DNA from: a virus | Taxonomy: Duplodnaviria > Caudoviricetes | Virus record (IMG/VR): IMGVR_UViG_3300037424_000154 | Coordinates: 1 to 30,979 of that record | Reading direction: 5' to 3' (one strand) | Length of the DNA: 30,979 nt | Shown here: one piece after another, positions 3,288 through 30,979 of the stretch | How positions within the stretch are numbered: the first letter of the stretch is position 1 | Layout: each line of letters opens with the position of its first letter | Translations under genes and position numbers: made by a program | Notes under the pieces: generated by a model | The model's database searches: none | Seen by the model: only the letters and a program-made list of their open reading frames with translations | Told to the model about the DNA's origin: nothing

Positions 3288-3938
3288 GTGATGAGCATAG
3301 CAACAATGATTCTCGGGGAAAGCGGAACAGGCAAAACAACCAGCCTGCGCAACATGGTTGCAGCCGATACGCTGCTGATTCAATCGGTGAAAAAGCCGCT
3401 CCCTTTTAAGTCGGCGGATTGGAAGCCGGTACAGGGCGGCGGCAATGTGTATGTGTCTGATCAATCGTCGCAGATTGTCGCGGCGATGCACAAAACCTCG
3501 CGCAACGTCATCGTGCTGGATGATTTCCAGTATCAGATGAGTAATGAGTTCATGAGGCGCGTTACTGACCAAGAGGTCGGCAATTCAGCGTTTGCCAAGT
3601 ACAACGAGATCGCAAAACACGCATGGGACATCCTGATTGCTGCGAGCTCGCTGCCGGATAACAAGCGGATCTACATCCTGTCTCATTCGAACACTGACGA
3701 GTTTGGCAGAACCAAAATCAAGACCATCGGCAAGTTGCTCGATGAGAAAATCGTCATGGAGGGGCTTGTAACAATTGTGCTGCGAACGATGGTCCAGAAT
3801 GGCAACTATCTGTTCTCGACGCAAAACAGCGGGAGTGATACAGTAAAAAGCCCGCTGGGAATGTTTGACGATGAGATGATCGACAACGATTTAATGAGCG
3901 TAGATCGTGCGATTTGTAAATATTACGGAATCAACTAA
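3288..3938 (+). CDS. AAA/P-loop ATPase, Sak4-like recombination protein
   Basis: Walker A GESGTGKT, Walker B VIVLDD, adjacent to SSB-like and Gp157 genes. Confidence 0.85.
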   Translation: MMSIATMILGESGTGKTTSLRNMVAADTLLIQSVKKPLPFKSADWKPVQGGGNVYVSDQSSQIVAAMHKTSRNVIVLDDFQYQMSNEFMRRVTDQEVGNSAFAKYNEIAKHAWDILIAASSLPDNKRIYILSHSNTDEFGRTKIKTIGKLLDEKIVMEGLVTIVLRTMVQNGNYLFSTQNSGSDTVKSPLGMFDDEMIDNDLMSVDRAICKYYGIN

Positions 3939-3946
3939 CCGAGGAA

Positions 3947-4561
3947 ATGAGCATGTATAACCTGGACACGAACGCAGCAAAGCAAGCCGATCAAAAGAGC
4001 GGCGCAATCAACGAGGCAGGCAAATATATCGGCACATTCACCCGCGCCGAGAACATCACCAGCACCAAAGGAACTCACGGAGTTGAGTTCTCGTTCAAAT
4101 CCGACGCTGGCCTCGGCGCAGACTATCTTACCTTGTGGACAAAGAACAAGGACGGCAAGGAGCTGTATGGATACAAAACACTGATGGCAATCATGGCCTG
4201 CCTCAAAGTGCGTCACGTCACTAAGTCTGAGCGCATGGTCGAGAAATACGATCACGCCTCAAAGACAAAAACACAAGTGCATGCCGAAGTGTTCCCCGAG
4301 CTGATGGGCAAGCCCATCGGCCTGCTCATCACGATGGAGGAATACGAGAAAGGATCTGGCGGCACCGCCTGGAAGCCGACCATCTATGCGCCGTTCGAGG
4401 CGGGGACTGAGCTCACTGCAAGCGAGATTCTGACCAAGGCACAGCGTCCGGAAATGATGCAAAAAATGATGCTTACGATGAGCAATCGCCCGCTGCGCAA
4501 CAAGCCGGCCGCATCTGCGCCGCAAAACTTCGATGATTTCGACGACGATATTCCGTTCTAG
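3947..4561 (+). CDS. Phage single-stranded DNA-binding protein (non-canonical SSB)
   Basis: Acidic C-terminal FDDFDDDIPF tail; follows the Sak4-like ATPase. Confidence 0.75.
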   Translation: MSMYNLDTNAAKQADQKSGAINEAGKYIGTFTRAENITSTKGTHGVEFSFKSDAGLGADYLTLWTKNKDGKELYGYKTLMAIMACLKVRHVTKSERMVEKYDHASKTKTQVHAEVFPELMGKPIGLLITMEEYEKGSGGTAWKPTIYAPFEAGTELTASEILTKAQRPEMMQKMMLTMSNRPLRNKPAASAPQNFDDFDDDIPF

Positions 4562-4574
4562 GAGACTTATTCGC

Positions 4575-5075
4575 ATGACCACTCTCACGCTGTACCAAAT
4601 TTCCGACGAGTACGCAGCAACTCTTGCGCTGGCCGACCTGGACATGGACGAGCAGACCATCGCCGACACGCTGGAAGGGCTGTCCGGGGCGCTGGAGGCA
4701 AAGGCGCAGAATGTCGCAATGTTCGCCCGCAACCTCGAAGCCAGCGCCGCCGCTATCAGGGAAGCAGAGCAGCAGATGGCAGCACGTCGCAAGGCCATCG
4801 AGTCCCGCGCAGAGCGTGTCCGCGAGTACATCAAGGCAAACATGCTTCGAACTGGCATCAGCAAAATCGAGTGCCCGTATTTTGCCATCGCCATCAAAAA
4901 CAATCCGGCGTCTGTCGTTGTCGATGATGTGCGCGCAATCCCGGCGGATTTCATGCGCCAGCCCGAGCCGCCGCCGCCAGAGCCCGACAAAAAAGCCATC
5001 GGGACGGCATTGAAAGCAGGCAATGACGTGCCTGGATGCCATCTTGACCACGGCACGCGGCTTGAGATTAAGTAG
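4575..5075 (+). CDS. Siphovirus Gp157 family protein
   Basis: MTTLTLYQIS, DTLEGL, KNNPASVVV, PDKKAI...ALKAG..VPG; AGGAG RBS. Confidence 0.9.
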   Translation: MTTLTLYQISDEYAATLALADLDMDEQTIADTLEGLSGALEAKAQNVAMFARNLEASAAAIREAEQQMAARRKAIESRAERVREYIKANMLRTGISKIECPYFAIAIKNNPASVVVDDVRAIPADFMRQPEPPPPEPDKKAIGTALKAGNDVPGCHLDHGTRLEIK

Positions 5076-5102
5076 CTAAACAGGACGCGCAAAGGGGGGG
5101 TC

Positions 5103-5474
5103 ATGATAACCGCAGAACGCATAGCCGACTACATGGCCGAGGGAATGTCACGCGAGGACGCTATCCGCAGAGTGCGCGAGGAGCTGGAGATTGCGCGTCA
5201 GGTGCGGGCGGTGAATGACAAGAAGACAACTCCAGGCGGGCGCGGGATGAGATTCTTGCGCCGTATAGTGGATACGGGAATGGGAGGTAGCATGCAAACC
5301 TGCGAACAATGCTCACACTACGAGATGAACGATGCAGCCATGGGCCGCGCCCGTCATATCTGCTGGATAGCCTATGGCGGTGCTCCGGCGATTGGTGACA
5401 AGTGCCCGGGGTTTGATGAGAAATTCAATGCCCGTGCGCGCGCCGTTGATGCTGGCGTTGTGAATTACGAATAG
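5103..5474 (+). CDS. Hypothetical protein, possibly a fusion of two small genes
   Basis: Internal GGAGG RBS before MQTCEQC (Cys-rich C-terminal half). Confidence 0.6.
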   Translation: MITAERIADYMAEGMSREDAIRRVREELEIARQVRAVNDKKTTPGGRGMRFLRRIVDTGMGGSMQTCEQCSHYEMNDAAMGRARHICWIAYGGAPAIGDKCPGFDEKFNARARAVDAGVVNYE

Positions 5475-5479
5475 GAGGA

Positions 5480-5734
5480 GTGATGGACGGCAACATTATA
5501 ATCCAGAGTTACGTGTGGCATGGCGGAAAGTGTTTCTTCGTCAGCACAATAAACCGGCGGTCACCGGCGGCAGCGGCTTACGGCGCGATATACGCAGAGA
5601 CGATGGCGTGGGATTACGCCAGCGGGAAACGCGGTGCGCTGGTCTATCAGCCAGACGCATGTCAAGACTCTATGCGCGGACATTTTGCCATGTGCGAGCG
5701 GATGCGCGCTGATGGACTGGCTACAGAGTCCTGA
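5480..5734 (+). CDS. Hypothetical phage protein
   Basis: AGGAGG RBS, 84 aa. Confidence 0.7.
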   Translation: MMDGNIIIQSYVWHGGKCFFVSTINRRSPAAAAYGAIYAETMAWDYASGKRGALVYQPDACQDSMRGHFAMCERMRADGLATES

Positions 5735-5873
5735 TTTCGCCCGCTGGCGCAGACTCCGGAAAGCCAAGCGCTGCGCATGGTGCGCTATATGGCTGGCGGC
5801 ATGGATAGCGTTTCTGCTGGCGTCTCAGTGGTTGATGCTGGCGATGCATTCCGCTGTGACGCAGAACGCCTGA
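5712..5873 (+). CDS. Small membrane protein ending inside attC1
   Basis: MDWLQSPDF...AIWLAAWIAFLLASQWLMLAM...TQNA; stop codon lies within the attC site. Confidence 0.5.
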   Translation: MDWLQSPDFARWRRLRKAKRCAWCAIWLAAWIAFLLASQWLMLAMHSAVTQNA

Positions 5874-5919
5874 ATTCAGCGCGCGCCCGCAGGGCGTCCG
5901 CTGGAATGATGAGTTAGCC
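5861..5919 (-). mobile_element. Integron attC site (59 bp), attC1
   Basis: Minus strand: R'' GGCTAAC, 5 nt, L'' ATTCCAGC, central dyad, L' GCTGAAT, 6 nt, R' GTTCTGC; unpaired G5904 and T5897 at positions 16 and 23. Confidence 0.85.
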
Positions 5920-6241
5920 GCCTACTCACCACGAAGCGCGGCAAAACTTGGAGATAGGCATGCACTACAGAAACGGACGTGAAGCAAGGAACGGGGACAA
6001 GATCGTGAAACTGGAAGGCGGCAAGGTGGTTGCCTACGGCGTGCTGCACAGCGCAGTAGCCGGAAACGACTACTGCAACGGCAACATTGCGGCAGTGCAG
6101 CCGGTGAACGATTACGCCTGCATGTGCGACTGCCTGCACATTGACGACGTGGCCGAAGCGCTGGCCGCTAAAGGCTTGGACAAGCGCCCCGAGGGGAGGT
6201 AATTCGCCGCACCGCCACTGGCTGATGCTGGTGGCGGCTAA
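5867..6241 (-). mobile_element. Integron-type gene cassette (375 bp)
   Basis: Bounded by two attC GTT crossover points; GTTAGCCGCC (5913-5922) and GGCGGCTAAC (6233-6242) are perfect reverse complements. Confidence 0.8.
5960..6202 (+). CDS. Cassette-borne 80-aa hypothetical protein
   Basis: MHYRNGREARNGDKIV...DYCNGNI...ACMCDCLHIDD; GGAG RBS. Confidence 0.85.
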   Translation: MHYRNGREARNGDKIVKLEGGKVVAYGVLHSAVAGNDYCNGNIAAVQPVNDYACMCDCLHIDDVAEALAAKGLDKRPEGR

Positions 6242-6294
6242 CGCAAAGCTAAACGGCGGGCGGTAGCCCGTCCGATTTGGGCGCCGGGTTAGGC
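6236..6294 (-). mobile_element. Integron attC site (59 bp), attC2
   Basis: R'' GCCTAAC ... R' GTTAGCC on the minus strand; plus-strand hairpin with unpaired G6279, A6275 and T6271 (positions 16, 20, 24). Confidence 0.8.
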
Positions 6295-6308
6295 GCGGGA
6301 GAAGAACG

Positions 6309-6410
6309 ATGACGCCAGACGAACAGCTTCTGGCTCGATTCAAGGTGGCGCCTGAGCCATGCTATCTGGCGGCCAGCGGCGCCGTCACGGCGTCGGCGTA
6401 TCGCCTGTAG
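6309..6410 (+). pseudogene. Probable truncated gene of a second cassette
   Basis: GGAG RBS just after attC2, MTPDEQLLARFKVAPEP..., runs into the convergent i-spanin gene. Confidence 0.45.
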
Positions 6411-6814
6411 GCGATGAGGTCGGCTTGAGTTGCGGCACATAGGGCAGCGATCCGGATAAGAACTGACGCATCATCTGCTGATAATTCACGCCCAGTGGCA
6501 CCGACACAGGCGGCGGGGCTGGCGGCTTGGGGCACTCCGGTGGGACGCTCGGGCCGGTTGCGCAGCCGCTCAATATCATCAAGCAGGCCATCGCGAATAC
6601 CGGCCATCGCCCAATATTGCTCTGATAGTGCATGATTCACGACCTCCTGTTGCTCTCGCTCTGTTTTGCGCGCCGCTTCCGACGCCTCAGCCCGCGCCTG
6701 CTCGATTTTGGCGCGCCAGGTGGTAGCCTCGGAACGGTGGCCGTGGATATCGCCAGCAAGGAACGCGCCAGCGATTGCCAGCGTGCCGGCGAGCAGTACC
6801 CAGGAATTAAGCAT
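6362..6814 (-). CDS. Rz: i-spanin (Rz-like)
   Basis: N-terminal TM segment, coiled-coil region, follows the holin, contains a nested lipoprotein ORF. Confidence 0.85.
   Translation of the reverse strand: MLNSWVLLAGTLAIAGAFLAGDIHGHRSEATTWRAKIEQARAEASEAARKTEREQQEVVNHALSEQYWAMAGIRDGLLDDIERLRNRPERPTGVPQAASPAACVGATGRELSADDASVLIRIAALCAATQADLIAYRRYADAVTAPLAAR
6385..6633 (-). CDS. Rz1: o-spanin lipoprotein (Rz1-like), fully nested
   Basis: AGGAGG RBS, lipobox LSGC, Pro-rich mature region. Confidence 0.85.
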   Translation of the reverse strand: MHYQSNIGRWPVFAMACLMILSGCATGPSVPPECPKPPAPPPVSVPLGVNYQQMMRQFLSGSLPYVPQLKPTSSPTGDTPTP

Positions 6815-7142
6815 CCCCGCCATCCTTATGCACAGACACCCCGAGTCGATTTCCTAGGAGCTGCTCCAATGCGAATATACCCCGACTGCCCATGTGGCCT
6901 GAGATACCGACGAAAGCGGCTGTAATGAGCGGATGGAACCCGGAAGCCTCGCACAGCCAGAACGTGATTACCCCGACGAACCCGGCTGTCACTATCTCGC
7001 CTACAAGTTCTGTGACGTTGAAGGCCCGTACTGCGCCGGTTCGCATCTTGCGGTAGAACGATACGACGCCTCCCCACACTGCCAGGAAAATAACCCACGC
7101 ATAGGTTATCAGCGAGTAGTTGAACGGGTCTTTCTCCGGCAT
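6807..7142 (-). CDS. Holin
   Basis: MPEKDP start, three hydrophobic segments, GISGHMGSRGIF motif. Confidence 0.9.
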   Translation of the reverse strand: MPEKDPFNYSLITYAWVIFLAVWGGVVSFYRKMRTGAVRAFNVTELVGEIVTAGFVGVITFWLCEASGFHPLITAAFVGISGHMGSRGIFALEQLLGNRLGVSVHKDGGDA

Positions 7143-7158
7143 GGTGCTGGCCCTATTG

Positions 7159-7713
7159 TTACGTTTTAACATGTGTCAACGCCGCTCTCAGTCGGCCCCA
7201 ATCAAACAGCAATCCGGGGTCTTTCTTCCTCCCCGGCGCCACGTCGCTATGCCCGACAATGTTACCCACGGTCACGCCGTGATGCGTCATCAGCTCTGCG
7301 CATAGGTGGCTCAATGCTGCGTACTGGTCGCCAGTATAGCCGCTATCATGCGTGGCGATAAGCTCAATGCCGATGCTCCATGCATTGAGATTGTCACGGC
7401 CACGCCAGGTTGATACCCCAGCGTGATATGCCTGTTTTGTCTCTGGCACCAGCGAATAAACCACGCCGTCCCGGTCTATCATGTAGTGGGCGCTAGCATA
7501 CTGCCTCGGGTTGTTACTTGGCGGCATAACCAGTCCGCGCTCGGCCCCGGCGCTGTTGAGGTCGAGGAGCAGGTCGTAGCATGTGTCCGGGGCGAATTTG
7601 TTGTCCGGCATGGCATAGAGCGCCGAGAAATAGTGAACGACAATCGCACCCACTTTCCCCAGCGGCTTCTGCGAGTAGCAGTATTCCGGCAGCGGACGGT
7701 TAATAATTTGCAT
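7159..7713 (-). CDS. Endolysin, N-acetylmuramoyl-L-alanine amidase (AmpD-like)
   Basis: IVVHY, SAHYMIDRDG, AYHAGVS, SIGIEL, GHSDVAPGRKKDPG. Confidence 0.95.
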   Translation of the reverse strand: MQIINRPLPEYCYSQKPLGKVGAIVVHYFSALYAMPDNKFAPDTCYDLLLDLNSAGAERGLVMPPSNNPRQYASAHYMIDRDGVVYSLVPETKQAYHAGVSTWRGRDNLNAWSIGIELIATHDSGYTGDQYAALSHLCAELMTHHGVTVGNIVGHSDVAPGRKKDPGLLFDWGRLRAALTHVKT

Positions 7714-8087: not shown

Positions 8088-8554
8088 TCCATCTGGGGGA
8101 GTTCGGCAATCAGCTCTTCGATGGTTGGCTGCGTGCGCTGCCCTGAGTAAACCGCGTCAGCCTGGGCGATGCAGTATAGCCATACCTGAGTACGCCAGGC
8201 CTCGAACGCATCCGCATCCGCAGTGAAAGCGGGGAACGCGCTGTCCCTGTAACTCAGGCATGCGGCAGTGGGCGACATGGTGGCGGTCCCGTACCTGCGG
8301 GCGCGGGCCACGTCGTCAATGTGCATATCGACAGCCAGCTCCAGCTCTGCCTCTATCTCTTTTGTTTTGGCCGCGAGGATAGCGTCCGTCGGGTCGACAA
8401 CAACAATGCCGCCATCGGCAATCTGCAACCAGCCGGCATCCGGTACATCGAACGGCTCGAACCCCTCATCCAGGGCCGCAGCTGCGTCGAACCCGTCCCA
8501 CCCACTGTCACGGGCGGCGATACTGCCTTCCTCTATTTTTGCGTATATTGGCAT
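8075..8554 (-). CDS. Tail fibre assembly/chaperone-like protein
   Basis: Follows the fibre gene; AFEAWRTQVW...PTIEELIAELP.MEWP C-terminus. Confidence 0.7.
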   Translation of the reverse strand: MPIYAKIEEGSIAARDSGWDGFDAAAALDEGFEPFDVPDAGWLQIADGGIVVVDPTDAILAAKTKEIEAELELAVDMHIDDVARARRYGTATMSPTAACLSYRDSAFPAFTADADAFEAWRTQVWLYCIAQADAVYSGQRTQPTIEELIAELPQMEWPS

Positions 8555-30053: not shown

Positions 30054-30415
30054 CATCGTTAAAGTCCCCATGATTCGTGCACCGGTACGCAGAAAATCTC
30101 CGACCCTTCCGGGATATCAACATCCGCAATCTGCCGGAGATCTGCCGTCGTTGTGTTTTCCAGCATCCCAGCAAATCCGACTGATTCCCATTTGAACACA
30201 TGCAAGGCGCGGGACAACTTGATGCGGCCATTCTCCCGCACAACATCACCAGCAAATATCCAGCCACGATCTACTACGATCACGGCGCGATTGCCAACAA
30301 CCTTGATTGTGTTCGATGCCATTTTTTTGCCCTCTCGTTAATTTCTGAGCCCAGACAATACCGACTCAGCGCCAGCCAATCCAATCAATTGTTTCTATCC
30401 CAGTCGCGGAACGCT
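30054..30415. repeat. 362-bp direct repeat, complete copy
   Basis: 30054-30177 = 30856-30979 and 30315-30415 = 1-101. Confidence 0.9.
30059..30322 (-). CDS. Conserved small phage protein (DUF6948-like)
   Basis: VIVVDRGWIFAG...GFAG; GAGAGGG RBS; family recalled as a frequent neighbour of (Gly-X)n genes. Confidence 0.7.
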   Translation of the reverse strand: MASNTIKVVGNRAVIVVDRGWIFAGDVVRENGRIKLSRALHVFKWESVGFAGMLENTTTADLRQIADVDIPEGSEIFCVPVHESWGL

Positions 30416-30417
30416 TA

Positions 30418-30537
30418 TCACCAGAACGCGCTCCGCGCGTTCGAGAATTCGTCAGCCTCACGCAACAATTCGCGCCCGCGCTCGATCATGCCGCGGATGT
30501 AAAGCGCGTCCTCCTCGGTCAGCTTGGCCCATGGTAA
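30418..30537 (-). pseudogene. Internal fragment of a small phage DNA-binding protein
   Basis: LPWAKLTEEDALYIR...ELLREADEFSNA with no upstream start codon, cut near the repeat edge. Confidence 0.55.
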
Positions 30538-30858
30538 TTACGGCAGCCTGCGCCGCGATCTTGCTCGAACCGTTCCGTTGCCGTTGCCGTAGCCGTAGCC
30601 GTCGCCGTTGCCGTCGCCGCCGCCGTTGCCGTTGCCGTTGCCGTTGCCGTAGCCGTTGCCGTTGCCGTTGCCGTAGCCGTTGCCGTAGCCGTAGCCGTAG
30701 CCGTCGCCGTTGCCGTTGCCGTAGCCGTCGCCGTTGCCGTTGCCGTTGCCGTAGCCGTCGCCGTTGCCGTAGCCGTAGCCGTCGCCGTCGCCGTAGCCGT
30801 CGCCGTTGCCGTAGCCGTAGCCGTTGCCGTAGCCGTAGCCGTCGCCTACCGGATGCAT
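30538..30858 (-). CDS. (Gly-X)n repeat protein, X = Tyr/Asn/Asp
   Basis: MHPV-(GD/GY/GN)n-TVRARSRRRLP; ATG 2 nt after the stop of the duplicated upstream gene. Confidence 0.7.
   Translation of the reverse strand: MHPVGDGYGYGNGYGYGNGDGYGDGDGYGYGNGDGYGNGNGNGDGYGNGNGDGYGYGYGNGYGNGNGNGYGNGNGNGNGGGDGNGDGYGYGNGNGTVRARSRRRLP
30574..30846 (-). repeat. Hexamer tandem repeat GGC-NAC
   Basis: About 45 units of GGCTAC/GGCAAC/GGCGAC, one GGCGGC. Confidence 0.95.
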
Positions 30859-30979
30859 CGTTAAAGTCCCCATGATTCGTGCACCGGTACGCAGAAAATC
30901 TCCGACCCTTCCGGGATATCAACATCCGCAATCTGCCGGAGATCTGCCGTCGTTGTGTTTTCCAGCATCCCAGCAAATC
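30856..30979. repeat. Partial copy of the 362-bp repeat, with the 3' end of a second DUF6948-like gene
   Basis: Identical to 30054-30177. Confidence 0.95.

Follow-up and report, generated by a model that had tools for sequence, protein, structure and literature searches.

An inverted gene cassette bounded by attC sites in an uncultured tailed phage, and its probable descent from a phage-type integron

An attC-bounded gene in a phage early region

The window analysed here is the whole of a 30,979-nucleotide stretch of viral DNA (IMG/VR record IMGVR_UViG_3300037424_000154, or G000). It represents a tailed phage of 31 kb, whose modules, among the 60 open reading frames (ORFs) scanned, cover replication, Sak4/SSB/Gam, lysis, tail and head. 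Within it, a single gene of 80 amino acids lies between two 59-bp sites with the anatomy of integron attC sites, attC1 and attC2, which delimit a putative gene cassette of 375 bp (Table 1). An earlier note, made from the sequence alone, had described these two sites with their unpaired bases, a cassette embedded in an early operon, and a genome lacking an integrase. The sites and their bases were confirmed by a sequence check, an anatomy scanner and a covariance model, and when the genome was searched in six frames, neither a tyrosine recombinase nor IntI nor a resolvase was detected at E ≤ 1. As a qualification of the operon setting, the cassette occupies the far end of the rightward early genes and adjoins a converging lysis module.

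Both sites contained AAC/GTT core triplets, spacers of 5-6 nt and paired L boxes. Counted from the right end of each site, an extrahelical G16 was accompanied by T23 or T24 on the arm opposite the bottom-strand AAC; the combination G16/T23 is that of attC aadA7, and G16/A20/T24 that of attC oxa2 (PMC5027507). The integron integrase, IntI, acts on the bottom strand in its folded form and cuts within the R' AAC (PMC5027507), and the crossover in attC1 was predicted between the second A and the C of this triplet, i.e., between 5866 and 5867. The weaker of the two sites is attC1, with an R' box (GCAGAAC) that departs twice from the RYYYAAC consensus, a T23 held within an internal loop rather than a clean bulge, a short inner stem, and R boxes that do not match each other, as the earlier note had also reported.

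The anatomy scanner scored the two sites at 15.5 and 16.5, and no site scoring 15 or more was found in 100 simulated genomes. Analysis by covariance model gave 47.9 bits for attC1 and 45.3 bits for attC2, both on the plus strand, the next best score in the genome being 9.6; the model was our own, built from 30 bottom strands taken from canonical plasmid, provirus and metagenome arrays, rather than the attC model of IntegronFinder. When each site was taken alone and its fold compared with shuffled sequences, z was -0.22 for attC1 and -2.29 for attC2. After joining the cassette ends as a circle, attC1 folded at -21.7 kcal/mol, compared with -11.7 kcal/mol in the linear form, and the pairing probability of its R boxes was 0.98.

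At the cassette ends themselves, GTTAGCCGCC (5913-5922) and GGCGGCTAAC (6233-6242) are perfect complements at 10 of 10 bases, again in agreement with the earlier note. The right boundary was also visible through comparison with other loci (denoted by L numbers), since the window, L010 and L238 have the last 32 nt of the cassette in common up to the AAC and diverge two bases after it; the right end of the unit thus recurs in other contexts with its boundary at the crossover. The left boundary was less clean, with an attC 75-84% alike in L021, L202 and L102, and a different attC in L238 and L018.

The cassette forms have a trailer hairpin in which the R' flank makes up the right arm, often together with a leader hairpin using the R'' flank. 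Examples are found in the window (5916-5941 and 6212-6237) and in L018, L102, L137, L141, L188 and L240, and the arms change in step with the cassette ends. Such hairpins might interfere with the folding of attC or have a role at the RNA level. No sigma-70-like promoter was found in the cassette leader (5916..5959).

Judging from its sequence, the segment that follows the cassette is probably the stub of a second one. A pattern search for relatives of its ORF returned 0 matches; no intI was present 3' of the stub, and no attI-like site was seen by eye after attC2, no attI model having been run on the window. With at least two close attC sites and no intI, the window conforms to a CALIN (a cluster of attC sites lacking the integrase gene); the minimum set by Qi et al. 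was likewise two sites. A complete integron contains an intI gene, which is absent from the window and present in relatives.

Table 1. Positions of the attC-bounded cassette and surrounding features in the window
Feature	Position	Strand	Remarks
attC1	5861..5919	+ (bottom, recombinogenic strand)	aadA7-like; 6/5 spacers; G16 at 5904, T23 at 5897 in 2x2 loop
attC2	6236..6294	+	oxa2-like extrahelical set; 5/5 spacers; G16 at 6279, A20 at 6275, T24 at 6271; polarity as attC1
Gene cassette, 375 bp (attC1 body, leader, inverted ORF, trailer)	5867..6241	.	End complement; circle fold; homology with L010 and L238 stops at right AAC
Cassette leader, small hairpin and GGAG ribosome-binding site	5916..5959	+	64-75% alike in L202, L018, L010, L021, L238, L102, L059
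80-amino-acid ORF, conserved phage protein, on attC bottom strand	5960..6202	+	5604 homologue clusters; third-position changes; predicted local distance difference test (pLDDT) 88
Trailer hairpin, right arm ending in attC2 R' box	6203..6242	+	-11.7 kcal/mol; last 32 nt identical in L010, L238
Probable second-cassette stub (attC2, ribosome site, 33-codon ORF 6309-6410)	6242..6410	+	ORF runs into end of Rz gene
Sak4-like recombinase, SSB and Gam-like genes (context)	3288..5075	+	PHROGs; part of the rightward early region, from which the cassette would be transcribed
Converging lysis module: Rz-like spanins, holin, endolysin (context)	6362..7713	-	Starts at the place taken in relative L202 by intI and a phage integrase

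Orientation of the gene

The strand of the sites was established by comparison with known cassettes. On the plus strand, attC1 aligned to the attC sites of fosE, aacA34 and blaOXA-732 with 78-82% identity, at E-values that were individually weak, and in each case the gene lay on the strand opposite to that aligned; attC2 had no full-length match among plasmids. When applied to the tested TJE1 sites, the covariance model chose the same strand as the bottom-strand listing of Qi et al. Taken together, the plasmid alignments and the strand choice of the model identify the plus strand as the attC bottom strand, and therefore the gene as inverted. The R''-to-R' order given in the earlier note accordingly applies to the minus strand and fails on the plus strand, and the inversion of the gene was left unstated there.

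The 80-amino-acid gene is thus carried by the attC bottom strand, the reverse of the orientation in bacterial cassettes. In the canonical layout a top-strand ORF ends at its own attC; here, the gene begins directly after its own attC, 44 nt past the R'' triplet. That the gene is real was shown by the bias of substitutions, as 285 of 421 differences from ten relatives fell at third codon positions, and by the gene's score of 17.2, against -1.6 for a 155-amino-acid frame on the antisense strand.

Inverted cassettes in viral arrays

A search with one attC pattern recovered 40 viral loci, in which 91 intervals between sites could be considered. Of these, 77 were inverted, 11 canonical and 3 unclear, and ten of the 11 canonical intervals came from one provirus with a bacterial-type array. 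Plasmid controls were canonical in 8 of 8 intervals and inverted in none, while metagenomic IntI loci, sampled from 1 of 64 parts for control use only, provided 14 intervals (9 canonical, 2 inverted, 3 unclear). The inverted layout is therefore common in uncultured phages.

The complementarity of cassette ends was a general property of the inverted form. When 135 inverted cassettes were compared over the seven positions that lie outside the core triplets, the end-to-end match was 5.41 of 7, compared with 3.23 within the same site and 3.27 for shuffled partners; a match as high was obtained in 0 of 2000 shuffles, and canonical controls behaved alike. End-to-end matching of this kind is the footprint of insertion as a circle. 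Together with the AAC boundary on the right, it supports the earlier note's reading of 5867-6241 as a cassette bearing the mark of integration as a circle.

The position of the crossover was examined through pairs of cassettes drawn from 230 sites. In none of the six pairs with a common upstream flank was the attC also common, which places the crossover at the left AAC. The alternative arrangement, in which a top-strand cassette consists of a gene followed by its own attC, was rejected on the same ground. Where the cassettes themselves were homologous, three cross-contig pairs were clearly closer in their upstream than in their downstream attC, two were at background level, and one came from a single contig. 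In pairs of closely related cassettes (L108/L119, L122/L202, L114/L316 and L021/L238), downstream flanks 83-93% alike were joined to different attC bodies, the switch occurring at the R'' GTT. Excision by the top strand followed by insertion by the bottom strand could be a route to such a swap of attC bodies.

The cassette gene and its relatives

The cargo family is mostly viral and was represented in 448 viral stretches. Its predicted fold comprises a small beta-sheet and a Cys-rich tail. The 80-amino-acid protein had no match in Pfam, PHROG or NCBIfam, and fold searches of PDB and BFVD returned nothing at E ≤ 0.001; KOW/Tudor-like fold matches were weak (Z ≤ 4.1, root-mean-square deviation ~5), and matches in the Atlas were unnamed viral clusters.

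A targeted pattern revealed further cassette copies of the gene, including two in canonical orientation with a TJE1-like attC (L133 and L155); thus, both polarities exist among viral arrays. Inverted copies were found upstream of IntI in L018, L141/L330, L137 (where IntI scored 242 bits, below the cut-off) and the prophage L202. The last of these mirrors the window, in that cassettes are succeeded by intI and a phage integrase, and then by converging lysis genes; similarity to the window is 78% for the attC of L202 and 74% for its leader. In the prophage L238, the cassette lies between the terminase and portal genes. Among 80 genome loci, no inverted cargo cassette was found in a chromosomal integron outside prophages.

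Of 160 branches in the protein tree of the cargo, 109 were open. On this tree the inverted copies did not cluster, requiring 7 changes of which 3 were forced, and 378 of 500 shuffles gave a value as low. The tree therefore does not have the strength to tell repeated capture and repeated loss apart.

Free copies of the gene were of two further kinds. Those in L003, L006, L017, L019, L046, L050, L051 and L148 stand between inverted repeats of ~22 bp that start with GGGAATTAC or similar, and in this they resemble a small non-autonomous insertion element; the repeats may be similar to the ends of the IS1595 family. In L008, L022, L036, L146 and L151, free copies stand between direct repeats of ~15-45 bp in varied phage regions. 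The cargo gene seems to move by several routes.

Phage-encoded IntI

Among 41 viral records tested, the canonical provirus alone passed the IntI cut-off, with L018 giving a cut-off hit. In the Mu-like early region of L018, the order was a Gam-like gene, attC, a homologue of the cargo gene with its own complementary ends, AAC, ~35 nt and intI. The full IntI protein of this locus, P0121, scored 415 bits on TIGR02249, and six of seven viral IntI tested exceeded the TIGR02249 cut-off.

Viral IntI loci were then represented by the best 80 from 43 of 64 parts of the collection, fetched by an alignment of 60 relatives. With L255 added, these provided 66 intervals, of which 58 were inverted, 4 canonical and 4 unclear, and 118 of 120 attC matches were on the intI strand. 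The gene directly upstream of intI was co-stranded with it in 58 of 67 viral loci, compared with 16 of 48 metagenome loci. The catalytic residues R-K-H-R-H-Y were intact, and the IntI insertion was present, in all 32 viral IntI associated with inverted arrays. The end of the last cassette matched its R'' at 6-7 of 7 bases in 20 of 35 loci, often followed by a conserved attI-like sequence. Neighbouring genes in 19 sampled loci included terminase, portal, tail fibre, Mu transposase, primase and separate phage integrases.

A FastTree phylogeny of 153 rows distributed the viral IntI among several phage-rich groups, one of them containing 36 viral rows out of 38 with support of 99; at least six label changes were forced on this tree. 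Phages, then, carry complete integrons of inverted polarity with intact-looking intI.

Three other features of these loci were recorded. A separate phage integrase stood directly after intI in L258, L261, L266, L275, L280, L283, L310, L314 and L202. Cassettes of phage integrons often encoded DNA methyltransferases, 3'-phosphoadenosine-5'-phosphosulfate (PAPS)-reductase-like proteins and radical SAM proteins. Finally, L421 (KX853513, virus Rctr41k) contained at 4680-5678 an IntI-like gene, annotated as xerD, among co-oriented small genes; no convincing attC was found in Rctr41k by our own model.

Completeness of the record and other features of the genome

CheckV described the record as linear and 74% complete. 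However, bases 1-101 repeat 30315-30415 and an 87-amino-acid ORF spans the resulting join, and because of this overlap and this ORF the record probably represents a whole circle. A contig of run X1, possibly the source data of this DNA, covered 4500-7500 with zero differences, and identical pieces, attC2 among them, were present in study X2.

At the contig end (30054-30979), repeated segments enclose an additional loop of 802 bp, accompanied by a Gly/Asn/Tyr-repeat ORF at 30458-30976; the loop may have arisen by tandem duplication or be a variant of the assembly. Five 22-bp repeats within the O-like replication gene (1210-1332) are probably origin iterons. A perfect inverted match of 20 nt between the cargo gene (6135-6154) and an unrelated late gene (8306-8325), both of which read HIDDVA, is probably due to chance.

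Origin of the cassette

The attC-bounded, bottom-strand gene is judged likely to be a cassette that was inserted as a circle and now remains from a phage-type integron that has probably lost attI and intI; the window is probably a truncated derivative of such an integron. In the complete form, early transcription would pass through the cassettes, across attI and into intI. Since intI occupies the bottom strand, expression would be confined to genes that share this strand, and selection would favour inverted ORFs. A deletion with one end within the second cassette and the other at the lysis module would have removed attI and intI from the window. It is an evenly balanced question whether the whole cassette could still be excised by recombination of attC1 with attC2 when a host or a co-infecting phage supplies IntI.

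A wider proposal is that phages run integrons of their own, with phage-specific IntI lineages at the ends of operons and bottom-strand cassettes into which ordinary phage genes have been made, so that the states of the cargo gene (free, in inverted cassettes with several unrelated flanks, and in canonical cassettes) would record repeated cassette creation. This is put forward tentatively, as somewhat doubtful in its full extent.

Several points weigh against the derivation from a phage integron. The training sites of the covariance model were the 30 shorter of 44 listed, chosen by our own scanner; orientation was called by our own heuristic codon-model caller; and the IntI search, which started from a phage-derived alignment and retained only the best 80 loci, favours phage clades. 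The R-box pairing probability in context was 0.015 for attC1 (0.49 for attC2). No excision or circle joint was seen at the cassette in assembled contigs, which cannot exclude either. No close relative of the window phage with an empty site or with intI at the same position was found, and for this reason the deletion of attI and intI can only be inferred; a BLAST comparison of window positions 5700-6400 with GenBank phages returned no relative, and the upstream 84-amino-acid gene led to six distant loci, none informative for an empty site. Among 12 pairs with a common downstream flank, only 3 had a common attC and 9 had different attC bodies, so that attC and gene are not strictly linked and bodies are swapped at R'' too. 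Of 36 viral records with the attC pattern, 35 contained no IntI match (most are fragments), making integrase-less arrays the common state. Lastly, cargo homologues were accompanied by a scoring attC at only 3 of the 80 viral loci and 3 of the 80 genome loci, all inverted. The earlier note had held that homologues with unrelated boundaries would speak against a cassette, and such homologues are indeed the rule, 154 of 160 loci being without a scoring attC. The cargo gene is usually not a cassette, which does not by itself make the window copy something else.

The earlier note had proposed a phage-borne cassette system served by a host IntI in trans. The phage-borne system was supported; the host as source of the integrase was not established. 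Under this proposal, the array never had an integrase; a host IntI would have placed the cassettes in a secondary site where the early genes end, and would go on adding and removing them. It draws on the probably complete genome without a recombinase, on the predominance of records without IntI noted above, on the recombination of phage attC sites with attI1 by IntI1 (Qi et al. 2023, PMC9892861), and on prophage L238, which has the same cassette end, no intI in the stretch fetched and a host IntI on another contig. Nonetheless, four relatives of the cassette gene have IntI in cis, viral IntI form phage-rich clades such as the well-supported group described above, and bacterial and plasmid arrays are mostly canonical, leaving hosts as no obvious source of inverted cassettes. 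Because related phages encode IntI directly downstream of such cassettes, a lost cis integrase explains the locus at least as well, and a host origin of this kind is considered unlikely.

Slightly less likely again is a frozen relic, i.e., a former cassette that arrived by homologous or illegitimate recombination and whose sites are out of use. The phage encodes Sak4-like, Gam-like, NinB and NinG proteins that are in keeping with this; the inner stem of attC1 is short and its fold in context is poor; decayed cassette copies exist (L010, L059 and L072); and the gene moves by other means, as the repeat-flanked free copies indicate. Against these stand the retention of all extrahelical bases in both sites at 45-48 bits, the perfect 10-bp match of the ends, and the tolerance of attC aadA7, which still recombined after loss of T23 (PMC5027507).

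It is highly improbable that the sites are RNA signals between early genes (terminators, or elements of processing or stability) and resemble attC incidentally. The hairpins do lie on the coding strand, the stop codon falls within the TAAC of the next site in 44 of 135 inverted cassettes, and extra leader and trailer hairpins accompany the gene. However, pairing joins the two ends of a cassette, whereas an RNA hairpin would favour pairing within one site, and a purely RNA role is disfavoured for that reason. The sites are also associated with attI-like sequences and intI; an Rfam scan of the window gave two chance-level matches, none at the attC sites, and no terminator pattern overlapped them. 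RNA function as the sole explanation is largely refuted, and a secondary role in RNA is possible.

Capture of a piece of an ordinary bacterial integron, or a chance pair of palindromes, can practically be dismissed: such captures exist, in the L117/L118 provirus with its canonical array and IntI and in others described by Qi et al. 2023 (PMC9892861), but the ORF here is inverted and its family mostly viral. Chance is countered by the simulated-genome scan and the covariance scores.

Relation to known integrons

Integrons are viewed as bacterial platforms, in which the choice of strand makes cassettes face the Pc promoter. If the derivation proposed here is true, a phage form of opposite polarity, with its own integrases, would let phages use the same chemistry to shuffle accessory genes, and cassettes crossing between phage and host arrays would face the wrong way for the recipient promoter, by which exchange could be limited or shaped. 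The first making of cassettes has been called 'largely unknown' (PMC5371416). A cargo family in free, inverted and canonical states is a place to study cassette origin, and if phages run their own integrons and create cassettes, the question becomes testable. As an example of this form, the window locus is minimal and truncated.

Phage clusters of attC sites without an integrase have been published before, and the window resembles the 17 phage CALINs reported by Qi et al. (2023, PMC9892861) in having at least two attC sites in a phage without intI. Inverted polarity associated with phage IntI is the new part, as far as the literature search reached. That search, which left out most subscription papers, found no description of bottom-strand ORFs in phage arrays or of phage IntI clades; figure-only tables and the Dryad annotation file of Qi et al. 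(PMC9892861) lie outside this negative and could show inverted ORFs. By our own test the TJE1 array of that study is canonical (genes on plus, bottom strands on minus), unlike the window gene. The complete phage integrons that it reports are described as host-derived or class 1, and bottom-strand ORFs and phage-specific IntI clades are not described in the portion of its text available (PMC9892861). Divergent attC directions are reported there for phage P12002L (Qi et al. 2023, PMC9892861).

Integrons of class 1 and of chromosomes with attC sites of the aadA7 and oxa2 types (Nivina et al. 2016, PMC5027507) resemble the phage form in their R and L boxes, in the extrahelical sets G16/T23 and G16/A20/T24, in crossover at the bottom-strand AAC, in complementary cassette ends and in the location of intI on the bottom strand. 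They differ from the phage form in the ORF, which in phages is on the bottom strand and co-oriented with intI, and which a Pc facing away from intI could therefore not express. In one phage clade, moreover, only ~35 nt separate the attI-like AAC from the start of intI, unlike class 1 and chromosomal integrons. A parallel in transcription is found in the inverted-integrase integrons of Treponema and others (Cury et al. 2016, PMC4889954), where intI and cassette genes are likewise transcribed in the same direction. The Treponema type flips intI relative to attC (PMC4889954), whereas the phage form flips the ORFs and retains the usual relation of intI to attC.
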